This document shows, piece after piece, positions 8,515 through 21,318 of a stretch of 64,000 nt of DNA (its first letter is position 1; every line of letters starts with the position of its first letter). Both the position numbers and the translations under genes were made by a program. This stretch comes from an uncultured Gammaproteobacteria bacterium (GTDB lineage: Bacteria; Patescibacteriota; Microgenomatia; Levybacterales; UBA12049). The DNA lies in NCBI GenBank assembly GCA_964490105.1, contig CAZAZU010000001.1, forward strand, positions 646,245 through 710,244, written 5' to 3'. The notes under the pieces were generated by a model, which did no database searches, had not been told where the DNA came from, and was given only the letters and a program-made list of their open reading frames with translations.

Positions 8515-9054
8515 TTATTTCTTAAATTTCAAAACTAGCTCTATGTAAGTTTCTCTGGGAATTAAGATTCTAAATTTATTTAATTCTTCGCTACGTCTCA
8601 CATAAAAATCTTTAAATTTATCTCGTAAAGCATCTTCCATTATCTGGTAAGAAGTCTCGAGATCTATTTTTTTACCATTAAAATAACCGCTGAATTCATA
8701 CATTTCAGCGGAGACCCAGTCCCCATCTGTAATATTTATTGAATAACCGGATTTTTTTACTATTTTTTCAATTTCTTCTATGAATCTTTTTAAGCCTCTG
8801 TTTGAATAGTGAACAAGCGTATTTTTATAAAATAATGAGAATGGAAAATATCTAGTTAAATAAGAAACTATAACGAAATATAAATGATGAAAATTATAAT
8901 AGGAAAGACCCGTGTAAAATTTTAATAGCCATAAATAAGTTTCTATAGAATTTTCATTCAGATTCTTTGGAGGTTTCGAATTAAAAAGTTTATAGAAAAA
9001 GTAACTAATCCTGAATTCTTTTACAAAATCTTTTTCCGTATATCTCTTTTTCAC
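8515..9054 (-). CDS. Hypothetical protein (AT-rich island)
   Basis: 179 aa ORF, Tyr/Phe/Lys-rich. No motif recognised. Confidence 0.4.
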   Translation of the reverse strand: MKKRYTEKDFVKEFRISYFFYKLFNSKPPKNLNENSIETYLWLLKFYTGLSYYNFHHLYFVIVSYLTRYFPFSLFYKNTLVHYSNRGLKRFIEEIEKIVKKSGYSINITDGDWVSAEMYEFSGYFNGKKIDLETSYQIMEDALRDKFKDFYVRRSEELNKFRILIPRETYIELVLKFKK

Positions 9055-9543: not shown

Positions 9544-9984
9544 TTATTTATTGAATAATACAAAGTGTGGTAGTTGATCAAGCCCAATATAATTAAACAT
9601 CCACAAATCTTTTCTTCCACTTTTAAAAGTAGCAAGGTATTTCTTGAGATTTAACTTAGGAATAAAGGGATAAAATCTAATCTCTTGCTTCATTTCGTTC
9701 TTCTCAATCCACTTAAAATTAGCAATTAGCGGAGGTGCAAAATAACCAGACTTGGTAACTTTATCCATTACCTCCCATGTAGCACCAAAAATCTCCTTTT
9801 TTGGTTTAGTAGAATTTGTTTTAACTTGTGCACGAAAATTACACCCCACACACTGAACATCACAAAGAGGAAAACTTGGAGGAAGAAGCATTAATTTCTT
9901 TTTGCAATTAGGACAACTAATCAAATCCACGATTTCCTGTTCACCAAAATCCCCTGCTTCCTTATTTGATATTTTTAAATCCAT
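9544..9984 (-). CDS. Zinc-ribbon protein (CPNC ... CDVQCVGC), island accessory gene
   Basis: 146 aa. Two Cys clusters near the N-terminus. Immediately downstream of the methyltransferase-like accessory gene. Confidence 0.45.
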   Translation of the reverse strand: MDLKISNKEAGDFGEQEIVDLISCPNCKKKLMLLPPSFPLCDVQCVGCNFRAQVKTNSTKPKKEIFGATWEVMDKVTKSGYFAPPLIANFKWIEKNEMKQEIRFYPFIPKLNLKKYLATFKSGRKDLWMFNYIGLDQLPHFVLFNK

Positions 9985-10032
9985 GATCGTGAATTATACA
10001 CTTGAAGAATTAATAAAACAATCTAGTTCAAT

Positions 10033-10938
10033 TTAACTTATTAGGTCGACAAATTTTACTGATTTATTTTCAACCCAGTCCATGATCTTGACATACTTAC
10101 CATTATGCTTAGTAGGAAGATTATACTTACACCCTTCACATTTGAATTTCCCTTCTGCGTCTTTAAGCGCTAACTGACCGGTCTTGGCATTGGCTTCGTG
10201 AAGACAGCTCATGGGCGTTACATACTTTAAACCGTCCATTTGAAAAACATTCCAGCTAATAATTTCTGCAAATTCTTTCTGTATAGATAGATCTGGACTA
10301 TTATCATATTTTTCCTTGTAATAATCAATTAATGTGTAAAGTAAATTTTCGCGGGCTATAAGAATATTATCCCCTTGCCACTCAAATCCATAAGAGCTTT
10401 GGAATGCAATTCGCGCCCACTTTAACCATTCTTTTTTATTAGAACCGTATTTGGATACAATCTGTAGCTTATGATCTAAAAACCCTACTCGATCCTTAGT
10501 TTTAATGATTTCACCACGCACTACTGGGTCATACCGACTAACGATAAATGGCGCTTCACCACAAGTAATTTCTAATTTTAATTCAGCAACATAAGTCTTC
10601 CAATTCGATCTGTTTATTCGAGACCTATTGGTAATTTTGTTCATTTCACTCACTATGTTAAGAGGGGTAAATACTTCGCCTTTATTTCTAGCTCGATTAC
10701 GTTGCTCTTGTAGGCTTCTTATTATACGGGGTTGAATTAGCTCGCCATGCTTTCCTGTAATAAGCTGGGGTTTAATTTGTTTTTCAGAAGCAAATTCTAC
10801 GCCGTATTGCTCAAAATAAGAATCAGTTGCCCATATAATGTATTTGCTAGTCGTATGATCTCTTAGAAGAATATCAAGTAAATCATTATCAAGTAGAAGA
10901 GTGTTCTCTAGAATATCAGCTTTATCTAAATAAGCCAT
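10033..10938 (-). CDS. Methyltransferase-like accessory protein: motif X (GEVFTP) and motif-I-like (LEITCGEAPF) present, no NPPY/DPPY; C-terminal CEGC cluster
   Basis: The ORF track gives 10033..10998. Start is more likely Met21 (ATG 10938..10936), 1 nt after the stop of the giant upstream gene, with a weak GGA upstream. The layout parallels the methyltransferase segment of the 1343-aa protein but lacks motif IV. Confidence 0.5.
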   Translation of the reverse strand: MAYLDKADILENTLLLDNDLLDILLRDHTTSKYIIWATDSYFEQYGVEFASEKQIKPQLITGKHGELIQPRIIRSLQEQRNRARNKGEVFTPLNIVSEMNKITNRSRINRSNWKTYVAELKLEITCGEAPFIVSRYDPVVRGEIIKTKDRVGFLDHKLQIVSKYGSNKKEWLKWARIAFQSSYGFEWQGDNILIARENLLYTLIDYYKEKYDNSPDLSIQKEFAEIISWNVFQMDGLKYVTPMSCLHEANAKTGQLALKDAEGKFKCEGCKYNLPTKHNGKYVKIMDWVENKSVKFVDLIS

Positions 10939-10939
10939 A

Positions 10940-13900
10940 TTATTCCATGGCTTTGACATGTGTTTCGATAAAATTTTTTTCTTTGTCATCAAGTCCATAT
11001 TTTTTATAAAGCTGCTTATCTATTTCAGAAACAGATTTTGTCCATTGTATATCTGATTTATCAGTAAAATCTTGAAGGGGGATGAATTTATACGTCTTTG
11101 AAGTAGCGTCTTGACTTGCTTTATTAAGGCTATGCAGAAATCTAGCAAATTTGGACTGTAAATATCTAGAAAGGTTATATGAAGAAAGTTTGTCTAATTT
11201 CAATTTTGCACCAATTACAACATAAGATTCCGTACAAATGGTATTTGGGTAACCAATAAATGTGTTTAAATTATCGTCATTTAACTCAGTCCCGATATTG
11301 TTTGCTCTTGGGGTGAATACTTTGTAATTATTAATCCAGTCTGTATTCCTTGTGATTTCACTCCTTTCTAAATAACCTATTTTTTTACCTTTTCCGTAGC
11401 AAGTAACAGGATGCCTCAAATTCTCTTTAGAAGACCTAAAAATCTTTGAATTCTTAATTATGTCACCATCTAAATTGAAAGGCCGTCGTGATGAAACATG
11501 AACTTCAAGAGATTTAAACTCGGAATAAGATTTAATTTTTTTAAGTATAGTTATCGCCTGAAAGTGTCGGATAAAAATATCAAAGCCTTCTGTGCTCAAG
11601 CTACGTGTACTAATTTTTGGCGATAAGTTATTCTCATATGTAAATATTTTGGTTAGATTCTTTGTATTATTGTAATTCCTATCCCATAATAGGTAACAAA
11701 TTCCTCCTCTTAAATTTATTTGTGGAAAAATTAATTCCGGATTAAGAAAATCATGTAGTTCAGTTATATGAATATCATTTAACATTCGAGCCCTAAAATC
11801 ATCCAAACCTTTACCACCCGCATACCAACGCGTTGGCATAATCATAGATATGTAGTGAGGTTTAAGGTTTTTAGCCATTTCAAAGAAAAGATTATAGACA
11901 GGCTTAGCGCTAGCCTGAGCTCCTCCATCCTTTTGCTGATAAGGGGGGTTTCCTACAATTGCTGTAAATTTCATATTATTCTTTTCTGACATAGTACCAT
12001 AAGTCTTCAAATCATCTATTGATATCTCACAGAACTTTTTATCTTGGAACAATAAATACTCAATTTCTTCATCTTTCAACTTGATAAGATCAAATGAATA
12101 GAAAAGCCTGGCAATATTATCTACATTTAAACCCAACGCTTCATACATTTTTCGAGTAAATTCATATGCAACTGGTGAGGTAGGAATTGAATAAAAATTA
12201 TTTCGTACTTCTTCTAAATTTATGCCAATATTAGTGACCTTTTCCACAAAACCCTTCGCAAAACTTCCTGATTTACTAGCTAAATCCAAAATTTTTGTAT
12301 GCTTAATATTGTCCCAAAACTTTTCATCAAAAGCGCGGTACATTTCGTTAACGATATGTGAGGGAGTAAAAACTTCTGCTTCAGACAGTCGTCCAAATTT
12401 ATTTATGGCAATTTCGATATGCTCAACCGGTGAAATACTCCCATCGTATGAACGAAAATCCGAATTTTGAATTTTATAATCAAGAGCACTCAGTACAAAT
12501 GGATTGATATTTTTGCGAATGAGCATTAGATCCTCTTTATTAATGCCAAGATTTTGGGCAATGCGACGATTATCATCATTTACATCAATATTAGATATAA
12601 CATCGGTTAAGGATTTTTCTTCAGTAGAAGATAGAAATGCAAATAGAAGAATCATCACATAATATGTGCGGAAACGCTTTTCAAATGATGAGATTTCTTC
12701 ACTATCTCCTTCTTTCTCTATAGATGATGTTGCCTTACTGCCTGCTCCTTCAATTCCATTTTCCACACCTTCTCCTTCTAAATCTATTCCGTCTTCTTCA
12801 TTTGGCTTAATATTAATCCCATTCTTCCCACCAAGCTCTGGCAATTCACTAATAACCTCATAAATCGCTTGGTTGTCTTTTAACGAAGCATCAATACCAA
12901 TTTCTTTTACATCTTCAATTATCGTTCTGTCGTTTACATATTTACGGACTTCATCGATAATTCTTGTAGCTGTTACTTCAACAAGTTTATTTCTCTCGGC
13001 ATTAAGCGTTATGATAGGCGAAATTTTAAGTTCTCGTTGAATGAACTCTTCGATATTTTCATTTCCTATTTTCTGTGTATTTGCGCCATAAGTAAATGCT
13101 TTCATTTCTTGAAGGTAAAAAAGCCTTGTTGGATCGAGGTCTACCAAAAGTGTTTGTGGTTTCATGTCATATTTAATAAAATCGCCATTTTTATCTTGAT
13201 ATTTCTCAACCCAAGGTGACTGTAAACGAAATATCGCCTGATCATATTCTTGTGGACTTGTCGTAGATTTAAGATAGATCATAGTATCCCATTGTGGTAC
13301 GGTAGAGCCAGTAAGCATTTTATTAACTGTTAAGGTAATTGTCTTTTTACCTTTTGATTCAGCGTATGATATCGCTGACTTAATTTCCTCTGGTGTTATG
13401 AGTTTTTTATTATATCCACTAATATTAAAGATTTCATATTCAGAAATATTCTTAAATAATGATAAATTAGTTAAAATAAGTTTTTCGAAAGCATCACATG
13501 ATGCGCAGTACGGCAACACAACAACTATGTGTTGCGCGAGCTTGCCTGCTTTAATAGTCTCGTTGTCGAGCAAACCAAGCATGTTGGCATCTTTTTTAGA
13601 ACCATCAAGTACTTGAAGCAATTCAATAATTTCTTGTTCATAAACAAAAGATTCATAGTCGCCATTCCTACTGATACTTACAGGGGTGAATAATTCGGCT
13701 GGTTTGCTACCCGGAATATTAGCAAGCTTTTTGCGTGAACTTTCATTGGGATTAAACGCAAAACGAATCATCTGCGGAAATCCATAATATGGATTGTCCC
13801 ATTCGTTTTCATCCAAATGATCCTCGTTCCAGTTTAATTTTGCTTCGTAAATATCGCCAAATTGTACAAAAGCAATAATATCCTCTTTATTAAACTCACT

Positions 13901-14971
13901 TCCCATCAAGATGCGATATGGAGTCCCGGAAAGGTGAAGTTTAATTTTAGCCTTTATTGATACGAGCTTAGTAAGAGAACCAAAATCAACCGGGTCTTCT
14001 TTGTCATTCTTTAGTAATTCTTTATCTTCATCATCAATTTCCAGTCCTGCAAGAATCTTACCCAGTACTTTTGCTCGAGCTCCAAAGTGTGTCTCATCGA
14101 TAATCAACAGATCTACACTAACTGTTTTTAAAATTTCATGGTGTTTTTTTATATTTTCTGAAGAACCTGCAAGGTCTTGTAATGTGAGAAATAAAACAAC
14201 ATTTGTACAATTCTCCTCTCCAATACCCGTCTTAAATTTTTGGTCATAAAAATCTGACAATCTCAATCCTCTTTTGAGATCGTCTTTATCAATAAAACGG
14301 TAACCTGCAAAATCCTTGTGACTTTCTACAGTTTGCTTCCATTCCGACCGCACATCTGCTTTTGCAGAGACTATAACCGTAAACTTAGAGTCAATACTTT
14401 TAGCGCTCCACATCGAAGTAATTGACTTTCCAAAACGCATAACAGCATACATGAGAAGATTAGTACGACCATTTTTTACAGCTGAATTGAATGCATTTAT
14501 GACATTTTGTTGGTTTTCGCGTGGGAGATAATCCTGTGTTCGACTGTAATGATATTCTATAATCTCCCTTGAGTTATTGTAATATTCATATTTATCTGTC
14601 TTTTGATAATTATTTACAATATCATTCACGGCATTAGTTATCTCAATCTCGCCAATTCCTTCAAAAAACTCCGTAGAATAAATATTTTTCAAAATATTCA
14701 AAGGGATTTGAGTAAAACCATTTTGCTGCAGATATTTATGTACAGAATAATCACGGAAAAATACTTTGCCATCAATTGATGCTTTATGACGAGAGATCTC
14801 TTTTAAGTCTTTATAGTATCGCCTCCATTCATTCAGTCGCTCCTCAACTGGGCGATAGGTATCTCCCACTTTCAGATAGTTCGGGAGGGTATTTGTTGCA
14901 AAAGAATAGATATAGGGAGACACCCGACCGATAATTATTTTTTGTAATTCTGAAGTATTTATCCTAGACAT
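10940..14971 (-). CDS. Single-chain T5orf172(GIY-YIG-like)-SF2 helicase-N6-adenine methyltransferase-TRD protein (Type ISP-like restriction-modification/defence enzyme)
   Basis: 1343 aa. N-terminus YIYSFATNTLPNYLKVGDTYRPVEERLNEW (T5orf172/GIY-YIG-like). Helicase Walker A MRFGKSITS and DEAH-like LIIDETHF. Helicase C motifs MLTGSTVP and QAIFRLQSP. Methyltransferase motif X EVFTPSHIV, motif I ILDLASKSGSFAKGF, motif IV IVGNPPYQQ. About 300 aa C-terminal putative target-recognition region. Confidence 0.75.
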   Translation of the reverse strand: MSRINTSELQKIIIGRVSPYIYSFATNTLPNYLKVGDTYRPVEERLNEWRRYYKDLKEISRHKASIDGKVFFRDYSVHKYLQQNGFTQIPLNILKNIYSTEFFEGIGEIEITNAVNDIVNNYQKTDKYEYYNNSREIIEYHYSRTQDYLPRENQQNVINAFNSAVKNGRTNLLMYAVMRFGKSITSMWSAKSIDSKFTVIVSAKADVRSEWKQTVESHKDFAGYRFIDKDDLKRGLRLSDFYDQKFKTGIGEENCTNVVLFLTLQDLAGSSENIKKHHEILKTVSVDLLIIDETHFGARAKVLGKILAGLEIDDEDKELLKNDKEDPVDFGSLTKLVSIKAKIKLHLSGTPYRILMGSEFNKEDIIAFVQFGDIYEAKLNWNEDHLDENEWDNPYYGFPQMIRFAFNPNESSRKKLANIPGSKPAELFTPVSISRNGDYESFVYEQEIIELLQVLDGSKKDANMLGLLDNETIKAGKLAQHIVVVLPYCASCDAFEKLILTNLSLFKNISEYEIFNISGYNKKLITPEEIKSAISYAESKGKKTITLTVNKMLTGSTVPQWDTMIYLKSTTSPQEYDQAIFRLQSPWVEKYQDKNGDFIKYDMKPQTLLVDLDPTRLFYLQEMKAFTYGANTQKIGNENIEEFIQRELKISPIITLNAERNKLVEVTATRIIDEVRKYVNDRTIIEDVKEIGIDASLKDNQAIYEVISELPELGGKNGINIKPNEEDGIDLEGEGVENGIEGAGSKATSSIEKEGDSEEISSFEKRFRTYYVMILLFAFLSSTEEKSLTDVISNIDVNDDNRRIAQNLGINKEDLMLIRKNINPFVLSALDYKIQNSDFRSYDGSISPVEHIEIAINKFGRLSEAEVFTPSHIVNEMYRAFDEKFWDNIKHTKILDLASKSGSFAKGFVEKVTNIGINLEEVRNNFYSIPTSPVAYEFTRKMYEALGLNVDNIARLFYSFDLIKLKDEEIEYLLFQDKKFCEISIDDLKTYGTMSEKNNMKFTAIVGNPPYQQKDGGAQASAKPVYNLFFEMAKNLKPHYISMIMPTRWYAGGKGLDDFRARMLNDIHITELHDFLNPELIFPQINLRGGICYLLWDRNYNNTKNLTKIFTYENNLSPKISTRSLSTEGFDIFIRHFQAITILKKIKSYSEFKSLEVHVSSRRPFNLDGDIIKNSKIFRSSKENLRHPVTCYGKGKKIGYLERSEITRNTDWINNYKVFTPRANNIGTELNDDNLNTFIGYPNTICTESYVVIGAKLKLDKLSSYNLSRYLQSKFARFLHSLNKASQDATSKTYKFIPLQDFTDKSDIQWTKSVSEIDKQLYKKYGLDDKEKNFIETHVKAME

Positions 14972-17116: not shown

Positions 17117-19024
17117 ATGACAGCGAAGCAAATCATAGATATTTATATAAGTTTTTTTGAAAAACGCGGACATAAAAGAATCCCCAATTCTCCACTCGTT
17201 CCTGAAAATGACCCCACTACTCTTTTTACTTCTTCCGGAATGCAGCCTTTAGTTCCATATTTATTAGGACAAGAACATCCCCAAGGAAACAGATTAGTAG
17301 ATGTACAGAATTGTTTTAGAGCAGTAGATATCGATGAAGTTGGAGATAACAGGCACACCACTTTTTTCCGAATGCTCGGCAACTGGAGCCTAGGAGATTA
17401 TTTTAAAAAAGAGGAAATTCCATGGCTTTGGGAACTACTCACAAAAGAGCTAAGACTTCCAAAAGAAAAACTATATATAACAATCTTTGGAGGAGATGAA
17501 AATTTCAAAGTTTTAAAAAATGACAAATATCAACCGCTAACTCCGGACGCAGAATCATATTCCATATGGGCCAAAACATTAGATATTGAAAATGATGCAG
17601 ATGAAAAGAAGAAGAGAATCACCTATTGCGGTGCTGATAAAAATTGGTGGTCTAGGTCTGGAGTACCAGAAAAAATGCCAATCGGTGAACCGGGAGGACC
17701 TGACACGGAAGTTTATTATAAATTTGAAAATATTGAGCACGAAAAAAATTGCCTAGGTGACAGCCCAGCGTTATGTGAATGCGGAGTTTACTTAGAAATC
17801 GCGAATGCAGTCTTCATGCAATATAAAAAAATCGACGAAATAACTTTTGAAGAATTACCAAATAAAAATGTGGATTTTGGTGGCGGACTTGAGAGACTTA
17901 TCGCAGCTACAGAAAACAAGAGTGATATATTTCAGACTTCTCTTTTCGCACCTGTCATAAAATCTCTTGAAGACAATATATTAACAAAGTTTAAATATGA
18001 TAACGAAATAAGAGTTGATAAATCATTTAGGATAATCGCAAATCATCTTGTATCCGCTGTTTTTCTCATAAACTCAGGCATCTTGCCTGGAAATAAAGAA
18101 AGAGAGTCCGTCACTAGAAGATTAATTCGCAAAGCTGTTGCCCAAAAGTTTCTATGGGGAGATCGAGAAAAAAGTTTTTCTCCAGTAATAGAGATAATTC
18201 TTGAAACCTATAGAGAGACTGATCCTGAATTAAAAGATTTAGTAAAGAAAGTTATTGAGGAAGAAGAAATAAAAGCGAATAGAGCAACTAATGAAGGATT
18301 TAAGGCATGGAGCAAGTGGGTTGAAGCAGAATATATTTCTAATCCACAAATACCTGGAGATTTTATGCCTGGAGAAGGAGGTAAACTTCCACCACTTTCT
18401 GCTGAGAAAATGTTCGATCTTTATCAGTCCTATGGCTTATCACTTGATGTTATGGAAGATGTAACCCAAGGAAATATAGACAAGGAAGGTTTTAATAAAC
18501 TACTTGAAAAACATCATGATATTTCTCGAGCTGGTGCTACTAAAAAATTCGCGGGAGGGCTTGCGGATCATTCTGAACAAACAGTGAGAGGACACACTGC
18601 GACCCACCTTATGCACCAAGCCATAAGAGATATGCTGGGAACATCAGTTCACCAGTCAGGGTCAAACATTACAGCTGAAAGAGTGAGGTTTGATTTTAAT
18701 TTTGATAGAAATTTAACAGATGAGGAAATAACCAAACTTGAACAGACTGTAAACGAAAAAATAAAAGAAAAAATGCCTGTTTATTTTGAATTTATGCCGC
18801 TCGTTAAAGCTAAGGAAATAGGTGCAATCGGACTTTTTGATGAAAAATATTCTGACAAAGTAAAAATATATTTAATTGGTGACAAAAATCCAGAAAAAGC
18901 GTACTCAAAAGAGTTCTGCGGGGGCCCCCATGTCAACTTTACTGATGAGGTAAAATCGTTTAAGATAATAAAGCAGGAGAATATCGGAAACGGCCTGCGT
19001 CGGCTTTATGCAAAAGTCGGTTGA
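17117..19024 (+). CDS. alaS: Alanine--tRNA ligase, short form lacking the C-terminal (C-Ala) domain
   Basis: 635 aa. FTSSGMQP, FFRMLGNWSLGDYFK catalytic core, editing-domain HTATHLMHQAIRDML (HxxxH). Confidence 0.9.
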   Translation: MTAKQIIDIYISFFEKRGHKRIPNSPLVPENDPTTLFTSSGMQPLVPYLLGQEHPQGNRLVDVQNCFRAVDIDEVGDNRHTTFFRMLGNWSLGDYFKKEEIPWLWELLTKELRLPKEKLYITIFGGDENFKVLKNDKYQPLTPDAESYSIWAKTLDIENDADEKKKRITYCGADKNWWSRSGVPEKMPIGEPGGPDTEVYYKFENIEHEKNCLGDSPALCECGVYLEIANAVFMQYKKIDEITFEELPNKNVDFGGGLERLIAATENKSDIFQTSLFAPVIKSLEDNILTKFKYDNEIRVDKSFRIIANHLVSAVFLINSGILPGNKERESVTRRLIRKAVAQKFLWGDREKSFSPVIEIILETYRETDPELKDLVKKVIEEEEIKANRATNEGFKAWSKWVEAEYISNPQIPGDFMPGEGGKLPPLSAEKMFDLYQSYGLSLDVMEDVTQGNIDKEGFNKLLEKHHDISRAGATKKFAGGLADHSEQTVRGHTATHLMHQAIRDMLGTSVHQSGSNITAERVRFDFNFDRNLTDEEITKLEQTVNEKIKEKMPVYFEFMPLVKAKEIGAIGLFDEKYSDKVKIYLIGDKNPEKAYSKEFCGGPHVNFTDEVKSFKIIKQENIGNGLRRLYAKVG

Positions 19025-21318
19025 TCTCTATGAACTTACCAAAACTGCCCTTTTTAGAGAAAAAGAATAAATCGGAGTTTTTCCTCTCTCTAGTTCTTCG
19101 TGATGAAAAAGCTAGTGCTGTAGTTTTTCAGGAAATTGACGGGAAAATAAATGTAGTCGGAGAACATGTAGTTAACTTTAAAACATCCGTTGAAGACGCC
19201 TCAGAAGAAGAATTACTTGACGCGATAGATAAAGCGGTTTCAACTGCAGAAAAAAATCTTCCCCCTGACATGGAAAGTCACAAAACTATTTTTGGAGTAA
19301 AACAGGACTGGATAATTGACGGAAAGATTAAACCTGCATATCTAACTAAATTAAAAAAAATAAGCGATGAACTGGAATTTAAGCCAATGGGTTTTCTTGT
19401 AATTCCTGAAGCCATCGCACATCTGCTTCAAAAAGAAGAAGGCGCACCAGTTACTGCGATTCTCGCTGAAATCGGACAAAAAAACGTAACTCTTTCTTTA
19501 ATTAGAGCAGGAAAAATTGTAGAAGCAAAAGGAGCCGCAATCGGCGACTCGCTGGTCGCGACAGTTGAAACAGTTCTTAAGCATTTTTCCGTGGAAAATC
19601 TCCCGCCAAGAATTATTCTGTTTGATAGCGGACGCGAAGATGTCCAGCAAAAATTTATAACTCATAAATGGAGTCAAAGTCTTCACTTTTTACACCTCCC
19701 TCAAGTAAGTGTACTTCCAGCAAATTTTGATGCAAGAGCCGTACTTTCTGGTGCAGCAACTCAGATGGGATTTGAAATATTTGAAGCTTCTCTTACTGAT
19801 GTAGAAAATTCAAACACCAAACATATAAGAGCTGCTGTTCCAATTGTCGAGGAAGAACCAGACAGAACGCTTGCTGAGGCAGCATCTGAATTTGGATTTG
19901 TTGGAGGGGACGTAAAAGATACTAAAGCAGAAGCCAAAACTGAAAAAGATTTACTTGAAACCACAGAAGAATTAGAAATAGAAGATACAGAACCAGTTAA
20001 AGATATTCCAAAAACTGCTGTAATGGATAACATATCTCCCGCAGATCAATTCAGAGAAATTCCAGAAGAAGTAAAAATAAATAGTGCGGAGAAAAAACCG
20101 CTTCCAATAAACGCAGCGCTAATGATGAGTGGCATTATGGGTTTTATTAAAAAAGTACATCCGGGGAAAATATTAAAAGGAGCAAATGGATCACGCAAAA
20201 AACTCATAATTGGAATTATTCCGCTCGCCATAATTCTTCTTTTCCTCTACATTTATCTTTTTGGCAGGAGTGCGACAGTTACTTTAGGAATTGATGCCAG
20301 AGAAGAGGATGAGGAAGTAAATGTAACATTCTCTGAATCTGAAGCGACAAGCGCTTCGGATAATGTTATAAATGCGGAGTTTATAACTGTTACAGCTGAT
20401 GGTAAAAAATCTATCGCTACCACAGGTAAAAAAGAAATCGGAGATAAAGCGAAAGGAACTGTAACATTATTTAACAGCAATACCTCAGGAGTTACGATTC
20501 CAACAGGCACCGTAATAACATCTCCAAATGATCTTAAATTCGTTACAGATAAGGCGGTCACAATTGCCTCCGCCTCAGGCGATATTTTCTCAGGAACTGA
20601 GCCCGGGAAAGCAGATGTAACTGTAACTGCTGAGAAATTTGGTACAAGTCAAAATCTCCCAAGCAATACTAAATTCACAGTCGAGGGAAGTAGCTCAGTT
20701 GCTGCAAAAAATGATAAAGCATTTTCAGGAGGAACTAAAAAAGAGGTAAAAGTTGTCGCGAAAAAAGATCAGGATAAATTACTCGCGGAACTTCAGAAAG
20801 ATTTAGAAACTGAAGCAAAAGAGCAAATTCAAAAAAAAGCAGAAAATGGATCTGTAGTATTACCAAACTTTATCTCAGTCGAATATGATAAAAAAACCTT
20901 CAGTAAAGACGTTGATGATGAAGCAACAGAAATCAGTCTAACCGGAACAATAAGCTATAAAGGGGTTTCGTACAAAGAAGAGGATATTCTAAAATTTGCT
21001 AAAGACAAACTTGAGACCAGCAGTGACTTAGAAGTAGATAAAGATAGCATAGAAGCAAGTGCAGCCAATCTAAAAGCAAAAGGAAATAATGCTACTGGAA
21101 AACTTACCATAAAAGCTAATCTGGTTCCAAAAATTGACTCAAAGGAAATTGCTAAGGAGATAAAAGGAAAATCTACGAAGGATGCTATTGAGAAACTAAA
21201 TGAAATAGATGAGGTAAATAAAGTAGATATAAAATTATTCCCGCCTATCCCCTTTCTCCCACAGCGTATTCCGTTCTCCTCGGGAAAGATAAAAATAATG
21301 ACAGAAAAAAATGGGTAA
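19021..21318 (+). CDS. Large bitopic membrane protein: N-terminal cytoplasmic domain with FtsA/PilM-like (actin-fold-like) features, central TM, C-terminal extracellular Thr/Ser/Lys-rich domain
   Basis: 765 aa. Start overlaps alaS stop (ATGA). TM LIIGIIPLAIILLFLYIYLFG near aa 395-415. Domain assignment is tentative. Confidence 0.55.
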   Translation: MISMNLPKLPFLEKKNKSEFFLSLVLRDEKASAVVFQEIDGKINVVGEHVVNFKTSVEDASEEELLDAIDKAVSTAEKNLPPDMESHKTIFGVKQDWIIDGKIKPAYLTKLKKISDELEFKPMGFLVIPEAIAHLLQKEEGAPVTAILAEIGQKNVTLSLIRAGKIVEAKGAAIGDSLVATVETVLKHFSVENLPPRIILFDSGREDVQQKFITHKWSQSLHFLHLPQVSVLPANFDARAVLSGAATQMGFEIFEASLTDVENSNTKHIRAAVPIVEEEPDRTLAEAASEFGFVGGDVKDTKAEAKTEKDLLETTEELEIEDTEPVKDIPKTAVMDNISPADQFREIPEEVKINSAEKKPLPINAALMMSGIMGFIKKVHPGKILKGANGSRKKLIIGIIPLAIILLFLYIYLFGRSATVTLGIDAREEDEEVNVTFSESEATSASDNVINAEFITVTADGKKSIATTGKKEIGDKAKGTVTLFNSNTSGVTIPTGTVITSPNDLKFVTDKAVTIASASGDIFSGTEPGKADVTVTAEKFGTSQNLPSNTKFTVEGSSSVAAKNDKAFSGGTKKEVKVVAKKDQDKLLAELQKDLETEAKEQIQKKAENGSVVLPNFISVEYDKKTFSKDVDDEATEISLTGTISYKGVSYKEEDILKFAKDKLETSSDLEVDKDSIEASAANLKAKGNNATGKLTIKANLVPKIDSKEIAKEIKGKSTKDAIEKLNEIDEVNKVDIKLFPPIPFLPQRIPFSSGKIKIMTEKNG

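Follow-up and report, generated by a model that had tools for sequence, protein, structure and literature searches.

Here we describe three neighbouring genes from a window of 64,000 nucleotides (nt), this being the whole stretch of DNA that was analysed (contig CAZAZU010000001.1 of assembly GCA_964490105.1). We will particularly focus on the middle gene, which encodes a protein of 301 amino acids (aa) that resembles one half of a DNA methyltransferase, and on its relation to the giant enzyme encoded immediately upstream. All three are on the minus strand, arranged head to tail. In what follows, the 301-aa protein is termed A, the N-terminal methyltransferase half that the giant itself carries is termed A', and the catalytic half of the giant, together with its target recognition domain (TRD), is termed B. 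The features of the locus are the following, all on the minus strand.

10940..14971, minus: giant gene, 1343 aa, with a T5orf172 domain (GIY-YIG clan), a superfamily 2 (SF2) helicase, A' and B in that order
14630..14914, minus: T5orf172 domain, giant residues 20-114, Pfam PF10544, presumed nuclease
13226..14524, minus: SF2 helicase/translocase core, giant residues 150-582 (ResIII 150-352, Helicase_C 482-582)
11975..12394, minus: A' module, the giant's own methyltransferase N-half, with motif X, motif I and FYSFDL
10943..11974, minus: B module, catalytic half and TRD, with MKFTAIVGNPPYQ, NPPY at residues 1008-1011 and the C-terminus FIETHVKAME
10936..10942, minus: gene junction TAA-T-ATG (giant stop, one base, 301-aa start)
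10033..10938, minus: 301-aa gene, the A module, with motifs X to III, then a Cys/His cluster and a beta-hairpin at the end
10663..10677, minus: motif X of A, EVFTP, residues 88-92, invariant in 85 homologues
10546..10575, minus: motif I of A, LEITCGEAPF, residues 122-131, with E123, C126, G127, E128, P130 and F131 invariant
10381..10395, minus: motif II of A, SYGFE, residues 182-186, with the acid E186, nearly invariant
10231..10245, minus: motif III of A, FQMDG, residues 232-236, with Q233, M234 and G236 invariant and D235 conserved in at least 90%
10099..10215, minus: Cys/His cluster of A, C245, C267-x-x-C270 and H278, invariant in 85 homologues
9985..10032, minus: spacer of 48 nt between the stop of A and the 146-aa gene
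9544..9984, minus: 146-aa gene, predicted DpnI-type PD-(D/E)XK catalytic domain with two CXXC motifs

The first-pass annotation of this DNA had presented the two smaller genes as a translationally coupled pair downstream of the giant. The upstream junction is as it described, with a start for A 1 nt past the giant's stop: the TAA at 10942..10940 is followed by a single T and then by the ATG at 10938..10936. The 146-aa gene, however, lies 48 nt further downstream, so the wording of a coupled pair suits only the 301-aa gene, which abuts the giant. No claim of a promoter is upheld for the 146-aa gene, since a consensus scan for promoters and terminators in the AT-rich spacer ahead of it gave matches no commoner than in shuffled sequence. 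The A gene can also be read as a 321-aa open reading frame (ORF) starting at 10998, a start that was rejected because the homologues begin at the aligned position of the 10938 ATG. Indeed, the extension MDLMTKKKILSKHMSKPWNN (10940-10998, minus) is another reading frame of the conserved C-terminus of the giants (...FIETHVKAME), and this SKPWNNM extension recurs in a few database ORF calls. The alternative frame of the giant C-terminus is thus a source of wrong start calls for A genes.

The giant is a single polypeptide in which a nuclease domain, a helicase, a methyltransferase and a C-terminal TRD region follow one another. It matches over its full length the PADLOC model REase_MTase_IIG PDLC03626, a 'Type IIG' model derived from REBASE (1186.6 bits), and Pfam recognises ResIII, Helicase_C and Eco57I in it, the last one (2.4e-22) spanning residues 925-1082 continuously. 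When the N-terminal 140 aa are scanned alone, the T5orf172 family is matched (26.5 bits vs a cut-off of 20, E 9.2e-6, profile positions 2-96 of 101), and we presume from this profile match that the domain is the nuclease of the enzyme; Pfam found no Mrr-type nuclease at the N-terminus of the giant. The DExH box of the helicase reads IIDETH (residues 290-295). A' comprises EVFTP at residues 866-870, LDLASKSGSF at 895-904, in which K900 occupies the first-glycine position, and FYSFDL at 957-962, and it is followed by MKFTAIVGNPPYQ. B matches the PADLOC model MTase_II PDLC03375 (389 bits, giant residues 999-1342), and the same module is also the C-half of methyltransferases of 650-720 aa, termed A+B below. 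The giants found in other genomes fall into at least three classes, whose helicases are only ~24% identical from one class to another and which have the same kind of A' throughout.

A itself begins with a conserved N-terminal region (residues 1-85), after which the motifs X, I, II and III come in order. The family has ~60 invariant positions, and its invariant or near-invariant signatures are EVFTP, LEIxCGExPF, RxGFLDxKL, SxGxxWQGD, ARENxL, SWNxxQMxG, PxxC, CxGC and HxGxY. Its motif I is divergent, as an Ala replaces the second Gly of the ExxxGxGxF pattern. Between motif III and the expected start of motif IV stand the Cys/His cluster and the final hairpin (KIMDW...VKF). The cluster is a probable zinc knuckle inserted ahead of that last hairpin; its region has low model confidence in the predicted structures, and it is missing from the enterococcal, bifidobacterial and phage versions of A. 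The protein had been said to end in CEGC: this motif is present and conserved (residues 267-270), but it sits 31 residues before the C-terminus. The other half of that description, a methyltransferase-like protein devoid of NPPY, holds well, as a motif IV of the form [NDS]PP[YFWH] is absent from the 301-aa protein and from all 85 homologues checked. Likewise, no TRD accompanies it: none of the 103 representatives that consist of A only (see below) has a B-half match. The 301-aa protein stops a few residues short of the point where its fused relatives carry MKFDFVIGNPPYQ.

These fused relatives reveal what A is. Pfam, NCBIfam and PHROGs returned nothing useful for the 301-aa protein, and PDB sequence searches with the protein and with its profile gave no relevant match, while the PADLOC 'Type II methyltransferase' model PDLC03390 matched it at 3.9e-92. 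The family is large, with more than 7900 homologues among the matches listed, most of them of 295-330 aa and ~60% identical, which fall into 1486 cluster representatives at the 50% identity level. The best 150 of the 1486 include 103 proteins that are A alone and 46 that are A followed by a B half with NPPY, and this B half matches the C-half of the giants over its whole length. In particular, two proteins of 666-670 aa (P0128 and P0138) contain the entire A, Cys cluster included, continue with MKFDFVIGNPPYQ and end giant-like in FIExHVKEM; Pfam assigns A+B proteins of this type to Eco57I. The same motif residues are invariant, and motifs I-III are equally conserved, whether A is free or fused to B. 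The AlphaFold model of the fused P0128 reaches a predicted local distance difference test score (pLDDT) of 81.6, and its best PDB matches are CamA, BpuSI, BrxX/PglX, M.BseCI, M.TaqI and MmeI (E 1e-15 to 1e-8, probability 1.0).

A second line of evidence comes from a 230-aa 'N-6 DNA methylase' of a Lactococcus plasmid, which aligns with the A family in hhalign with 94.9% probability and has the canonical motifs GEVFTP, FLEPAAGDGNF, YGIE and RGNTL. The alignment pairs LEITCGEAPF with LEPAAGDGNF, SYGFE with IYGIE and FQMDG with VRGNT, and it is this match to a canonical half that allows one to assign LEITCGEAPF as motif I, SYGFE (E186) as motif II and FQMDG (D235) as motif III. A is thus homologous to the N-half of real, NPPY-bearing methyltransferases. 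Read from its motifs, it is the front half of a gamma-class N6-adenine methyltransferase, with motifs X to III and without motif IV or a TRD, and may bind S-adenosylmethionine (AdoMet). One NCBI name would make of it a nuclease, a reading that was rejected: no nuclease family was matched, and the C-terminal Cys/His hairpin of A also directly precedes NPPY in full-length methylases.

The second essential feature of A is its company. We examined 80 loci from a one-genome-per-species collection, 79 of which have an intact A gene. A giant, or a fragment of one, is directly adjacent to A in 60 of these 79 loci, in the order giant then A in 42 and A then giant in 18, and most of these pairs have a spacing of about -11 to +20 nt. 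In 10 further loci a giant lies 0.4-2.9 kb from A on the same strand, which brings the total to 70/79. Nine loci have no giant beside A; in six of them the flank is shorter than 2.1 kb or, for one, the filter had missed a fragment of a giant. When three close homologues were looked up, a ResIII/Eco57I giant of 1320-1340 aa was found immediately upstream in all three. The host labels of these loci comprise Patescibacteria, Bacteroidota, Bacillota, Gammaproteobacteria, Treponema and a Methanobacteriaceae archaeon, and the pair is also found on plasmids of Enterococcus faecium and Pediococcus, where RefSeq names the small protein 'restriction endonuclease'. The suggestion that the system has several components rather than a single chain is therefore supported by the retention of the half-methylase beside the giant. 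Of the three genes whose common occurrence had been proposed, it is the giant and A that travel together; the 146-aa gene was met with the pair in very few of ~85 loci, as detailed below.

What stands around and between the two genes is far more variable. In eight loci (L019, L025, L033, L034, L037, L042, L045 and L056), 1.1-2.9 kb of cargo separates the giant from the A-half, and the inserted genes include a YhcG-like nuclease, NYN, Fic, Schlafen/AlbA_2, RhuM, Bro-N, an S24/LexA-like protein and a free T5orf172 protein. This cargo is typical island content, and the giant/A junction seems to be an insertion hot spot. The most frequent flanking gene is the Type IV system GmrSD (DUF262/DUF1524), which was seen in 11 of ~80 loci and on the E. 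faecium plasmid (for example L031:10932-12683, L052:8029-10515 and L086:13035-14279). Other occupants of the flanking slot are PD-(D/E)XK proteins of the NucS/YhcG type and an HNH protein with weak Type IV matches.

A is also carried by phages. Among viral contigs (IMG/VR), 398 relatives of A were found, and the best 80 of the 398 loci comprise ~40 pairs of A and giant and 39 orphan A-halves (L146-L184). The orphans are 254-283 aa long (one ORF was read as 332 aa), have all the motifs and do not have the zinc knuckle, and within 6 kb of the 39 there is no giant, helicase, A' or B (for example L148:5959-6741 and L160:5959-6732). In the four orphan loci that were inspected, A stands amid phage early or replication genes, including a cytosine-5 (C5) methylase and a polymerase. 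From such surroundings, a phage orphan A may be an anti-restriction decoy or hijacker.

The fused A+B proteins have a partner of their own. In all five A+B loci that were looked up, one of them from Akkermansia muciniphila and found on at least 1000 contigs, the layout is the same: a ResIII protein of 1067-1121 aa immediately follows the A+B gene. These sister helicase proteins start with a T5orf172-like segment, end in an A' and have no NPPY. Their A' segment (TNQIFTPK...FIDLYMKSGLY...QVYGLAPT...FDxLP) aligns with that of the class-3 giants, and they stop within a few residues of the point where the class-3 giants continue with MKFDAVVGNPPYQ (MKFDxVVGNPPYQ). There are thus two layouts, helicase-A' with A-B in the sister systems and helicase-A'-B with A in the window. 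Both layouts thus have a single A, a single A' and a single B, and what changes is the attachment of B; A and A' both end at the same structural point.

Several further records belong here. A plasmid of Bifidobacterium longum (NZ_CP065398; L088, 7866-14681) has the sister layout, with the helicase-A' gene after the A+B gene, which is cut by an IS256 insertion sequence (IS) a few codons ahead of NPPY; its pieces are annotated 'restriction endonuclease subunit M' and 'Eco57I domain protein'. Two single records join the modules in further ways: in P0208 (1125 aa) A is fused ahead of a helicase-A' protein, and in P0225 (933 aa) a partial A, a linker, A' and B are found on one chain. These could be real Rosetta-stone fusions, or artefacts of assembly or frameshift, and we take them as hints only. 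On plasmids of Lactococcus cremoris (p1196B, L103:2036-2728) and Paenisporosarcina (L102:2965-3726), the giant is preceded by a short half 'N-6 DNA methylase' of 230-253 aa, whose motifs X to III are fully canonical and which has no NPPY; in the giant of the L. cremoris plasmid, a DUF4145 segment comes before the T5orf172-like part. Stand-alone B-half genes were considered as a third architecture and set aside, the cases being truncated giants, contig ends or IS-disrupted genes. A cfr plasmid of Enterococcus faecalis (NZ_CP028840, L104:1738-2817) encodes a 359-aa 'Eco57I domain' protein, B half only, beside an IS110 transposase; it is probably a remnant, and fragments of this kind may explain the separate 348-aa 'MTase_II' model of PADLOC.

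To see how the modules evolve relative to one another, pairwise distance matrices were correlated over 59 non-identical giant/A pairs. The helicase and A' follow each other closely (r = 0.91), as do, to a lesser degree, the catalytic part of B and the TRD (r = 0.74), whereas helicase/A' and B correlate weakly (r = 0.25-0.33). On this account B behaves as if it were an exchangeable cassette relative to helicase-A'. A correlates with the helicase (r = 0.54), with A' (r = 0.51) and with the catalytic part of B (r = 0.35). It is also the most conserved module, with a mean identity of 0.56, as compared to 0.43 for the helicase, 0.38 for the catalytic part of B and 0.35 for both A' and the TRD. The first-pass annotation had proposed a specificity or regulatory subunit; the absence of a TRD, together with the highest conservation where TRDs are at 0.35, makes a role in specificity unlikely.

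The state of A' was assessed on 62 sequences from giants and helicase proteins. Motif X always has its T-P and motif I its G and Y/F, and the acid ahead of motif I is always D or E. At the canonical first-glycine position of motif I, 61 of the 62 have a Lys, and where the motif II acid was expected they have A, C, P, T or S, never an acidic residue. It was tempting to conclude firmly that A', having no motif II acid, does not bind AdoMet. This argument is weakened by the match of the A'-B profile to the adenine methyltransferase PDB 7LO5 (E 1.8e-4), whose DPATGTGTF has its first G opposite the Lys: in this enzyme, whose structure is solved, the residue aligned with the motif II position is not acidic either. 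The Lys in motif I is thus the sole clear oddity of A'.

From the homology of A, its missing catalytic half, the conserved linkage, the permuted architecture and the modular evolution of the parts, we lean, with moderate confidence, towards a two-component restriction-modification (R-M) enzyme resembling Type ISP, in which A is an obligate, non-catalytic subunit of the giant on the cofactor side. A, A' and B would assemble into one methyltransferase/recognition core, with A docking on the A'-B module of the giant. Most likely, the docked A would supply or complete the AdoMet-binding side that faces NPPY, in which case self-methylation, and with it self-protection, would depend on A. The 1-nt junction could then tie the level of the subunit to that of a potentially toxic giant and keep both proteins in step.

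Several observations weigh against this reading. Two or three amply flanked loci have A and no giant (L030, L050 and perhaps L046). The giant has its own N-half directly before NPPY, and may alone be a complete methyltransferase. Given 7LO5, the motif II argument about A' is a weak one. A tracks helicase/A' better than it tracks the catalytic part of B, which mildly favours docking on A' over pairing with B. Finally, the AlphaFold model of the 301-aa protein alone is poor (pLDDT 66) and has no structural match, Foldseek against the PDB giving only noise; such a model would fit an incomplete domain, and is not evidence in itself.

Much of this feeds an explanation that we find possible but clearly less probable, namely that A'-B is a fully competent methyltransferase and A a structural or regulatory pseudo-enzyme partner without a catalytic role. 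A could then be an AdoMet sensor, or it could pair with A' in a dimer-like manner and thereby, in the sister systems, hold the methylase to the helicase protein. In the giant, A' has the normal position before NPPY and the Eco57I match runs unbroken over residues 925-1082; in the A+B systems, the helicase protein has nothing methylase-like apart from A', which is hence a natural docking module. The stronger covariation of A with helicase/A' fits as well, and 7LO5 was deposited as an adenine methyltransferase in spite of the missing acid. It is harder to see, however, why a pseudo-enzyme should keep every cofactor-side motif under strong constraint, whether free or fused to B, why one branch of partners should have a fully canonical EPAAGDGNF, and why A' should have an invariant Lys where canonical enzymes have Gly.

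More tentatively still, a single B may be served by both N-halves, A', with the Lys in its motif I and maybe no cofactor, and an AdoMet-competent A. The half seated against NPPY would set the fate of the DNA: methylation with A, restriction by the motor-nuclease with A'. In such a switch B would be a mobile specificity cassette recombining at the MKFDxVVGNPPYQ junction, which would explain the permuted architectures. A phage orphan A would capture the B of the host, and thereby get the phage DNA methylated or jam restriction. We regard this as a speculative possibility.

The origin that the first-pass annotation had proposed for A, a partial duplication of the giant's methyltransferase module turned into an inactive specificity subunit, is now improbable. 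The order of motif X and motif I is indeed common to both proteins, and A has no motif IV. However, this shared layout is by itself barely above chance: aligned with the giant, the 301-aa protein matches over 15 residues at motif X alone (BLASTP E = 0.03), and the A family profile compared with the 62 A' regions yields 21% probability over 20 columns, again in motif X only. The 301-aa protein is thus no recent copy of the giant's module. It is far closer to the N-halves of the A+B methylases, a separate lineage of 650-720-aa Eco57I-type enzymes, and the lack of a TRD in the least variable of the modules, when TRDs vary, speaks against the specificity part of the proposal.

An equally doubtful alternative would make the 301-aa and 146-aa proteins a unit of their own, independent of the giant, with a methylase-like targeting subunit and a DpnI-type nuclease. 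To judge it, the 146-aa protein has to be considered for itself. It has CPNC at residues 24-27 and CVGC at 45-48, as had been noticed. Pfam DpnI (PF06044) matches it with E 2.2e-4 and 21.4 bits, against a gathering threshold of 26.7, over profile positions 25-97 of 183, and all 35 aligned homologues match this model at E <= 0.01 (best 5.9e-12). NCBI names some of these homologues 'DpnI domain-containing protein'. PDB searches with the 146-aa protein returned nothing relevant, and its family profile did not find the DpnI chains. E15, D42, K55, C24, C27 and C48 are invariant in the family and C45 is kept in at least 90%, while the glutamate of the ExK motif of DpnI is replaced by Gln53 in 35/35 members. 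R.DpnI has E25, D53, E64, K66, two CXXC motifs and a bound zinc (PMC3424567). The 146-aa protein shares with it the two CXXC motifs and the spacing E-27/28-D-11-(E/Q)-x-K, and differs by the Gln for Glu in ExK, by a score below the Pfam threshold and by the absence of the C-terminal winged-helix domain that reads methylation, only profile positions 25-97 being matched and the protein ending at residue 146.

The two small genes are adjacent here and in L001/L010, which are one and the same contig; in P0121 an A is joined to a C-terminal part that shows a D...ExK pattern, and an HNH gene follows A in L002. These are the points in favour of a separate unit. Against it, the 146-aa family accompanies the giant and A only in L001/L010 and in L053, among ~85 loci, with a position upstream of the giant in the latter. 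In other places it is found next to unrelated methyltransferase systems devoid of A, adjoining a Type I-like helicase with an N6_Mtase/Methylase_S pair, a 1085-aa N6_Mtase/Eco57I protein or a 974-aa uncharacterised protein. Moreover, 48 nt separate the two genes in the window. The rare linkage and the unrelated methyltransferase neighbours thus mark the 146-aa gene as an independent accessory gene, and the zinc-ribbon protein can no longer be counted as a part of the unit. We read it as a separate accessory nuclease of the island, sitting in a variable slot and possibly modification-dependent, with an activity predicted from its family. In two unrelated loci, the gene after the DpnI-like nuclease is a DUF2726 gene (L001:9565-10113 and L098:6555-7016); the ORF at the corresponding position of the window (8515-9054, minus) has no Pfam match. 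Least probable of all is that the 301-aa gene is the functionless, decaying remnant of a second full-length methyltransferase, since, although truncated and IS-disrupted versions of A are known (L088, L041 and L065), intact copies number in the thousands and are uniform in length, ~60 positions are invariant across phyla, the end point is precise and the link to the giant is conserved.

The GC content is ~35% across the window, and the nearest relatives of the 301-aa protein are from Patescibacteria-type assemblies. Identical copies of the 301-aa and 146-aa proteins are recorded for a 785-kb contig. The neighbouring genes are alaS, an FKBP isomerase, a PolB-like exonuclease and small ORFs without assigned function. 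A 765-aa ORF with a TTG start (19021-21318, plus) has a Baseplate_J-like match (E 9.4e-9); it overlaps and directly follows the alanyl-tRNA synthetase gene, in surroundings that resemble the small genomes of Patescibacteria.

The small protein is labelled 'Type II methyltransferase', 'restriction endonuclease subunit M' or 'restriction endonuclease' in databases, and the giant 'Type IIG'. Our analysis says rather that the small protein should be unable to methylate alone, and that the real unit would be a helicase-driven, ISP-like enzyme with an obligatory half-domain subunit. Units of this kind occur widely, in Patescibacteria, Bacteroidota and gut Firmicutes, on dairy and enterococcal plasmids and, with A fused to B, in Akkermansia. 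Their relabelling affects both the assignment of methylomes to genes and the counts of defence systems. A core with separable A, A' and B is also a natural experiment on the balance between methylation and restriction in single-chain R-M enzymes, and it bears on the exchange of specificity cassettes and on half-domains that work in trans. The orphan halves of phages, for their part, hint at a new anti-restriction strategy.

How, then, does this system compare with those already known? In the searchable, incomplete literature we found no description of a half-methylase partner or of an A/A'/B permutation. The possibility that MANTIS/Gao_RL is the same system was rejected, as it is a four-gene system with an AAA+ ATPase. 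No adenine methyltransferase with a break between motifs III and IV and a redundant N-half is known to us as a precedent.

The closest relatives in general design are the Type ISP enzymes LlaGI and LlaBIII, which are described as bearing a nuclease, an SF2 translocase, a gamma-class adenine methyltransferase and a TRD on one chain (PMC3553950). The giant has the same order of activities on one chain, so that its T5orf172, helicase, methyltransferase and TRD represent the Type ISP order with a different nuclease domain, of the T5orf172/GIY-YIG clan and not Mrr. It also differs by an atypical methyltransferase N-half, with its Lys in motif I, and by a second conserved protein, the half-methylase, so that it would not be a single-polypeptide system. 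The Type IIG/IIL enzymes (the Eco57I family; BpuSI, MmeI, 7LO5), CamA, M.TaqI and BrxX share their fold or Pfam family with the B half and with A+B. They have X-I-II-III-IV on one chain, however, whereas the 301-aa protein stops just before IV, and unlike them the giant also carries a helicase. In Bacillus subtilis and Vibrio, the conserved operon DnmA-YeeB-YeeC encodes an adenine methyltransferase, an SF2 helicase and a T5orf172 protein (PMC9973331). The window system combines the same three activities, which DnmA-YeeB-YeeC spreads over three proteins, with a complete, MmeI-like methylase and no half-methylase described. Finally, the C5 methyltransferases M.AquI and M.EcoHK31I are two-polypeptide enzymes, and inactive fragments can complement one another, a precedent for half-enzymes that work in trans (PMC3404938). 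They are cytosine-5 enzymes, split late (motifs IX/X) and without redundancy, whereas the window system is an adenine enzyme split between motifs III and IV, and it does not distribute exactly one set of motifs over two chains: A has X to III, and the giant has IV onward plus an N-half of its own with X/I/III-like motifs. The components are thus of known kinds, and both proteins are already in the databases under misleading names.

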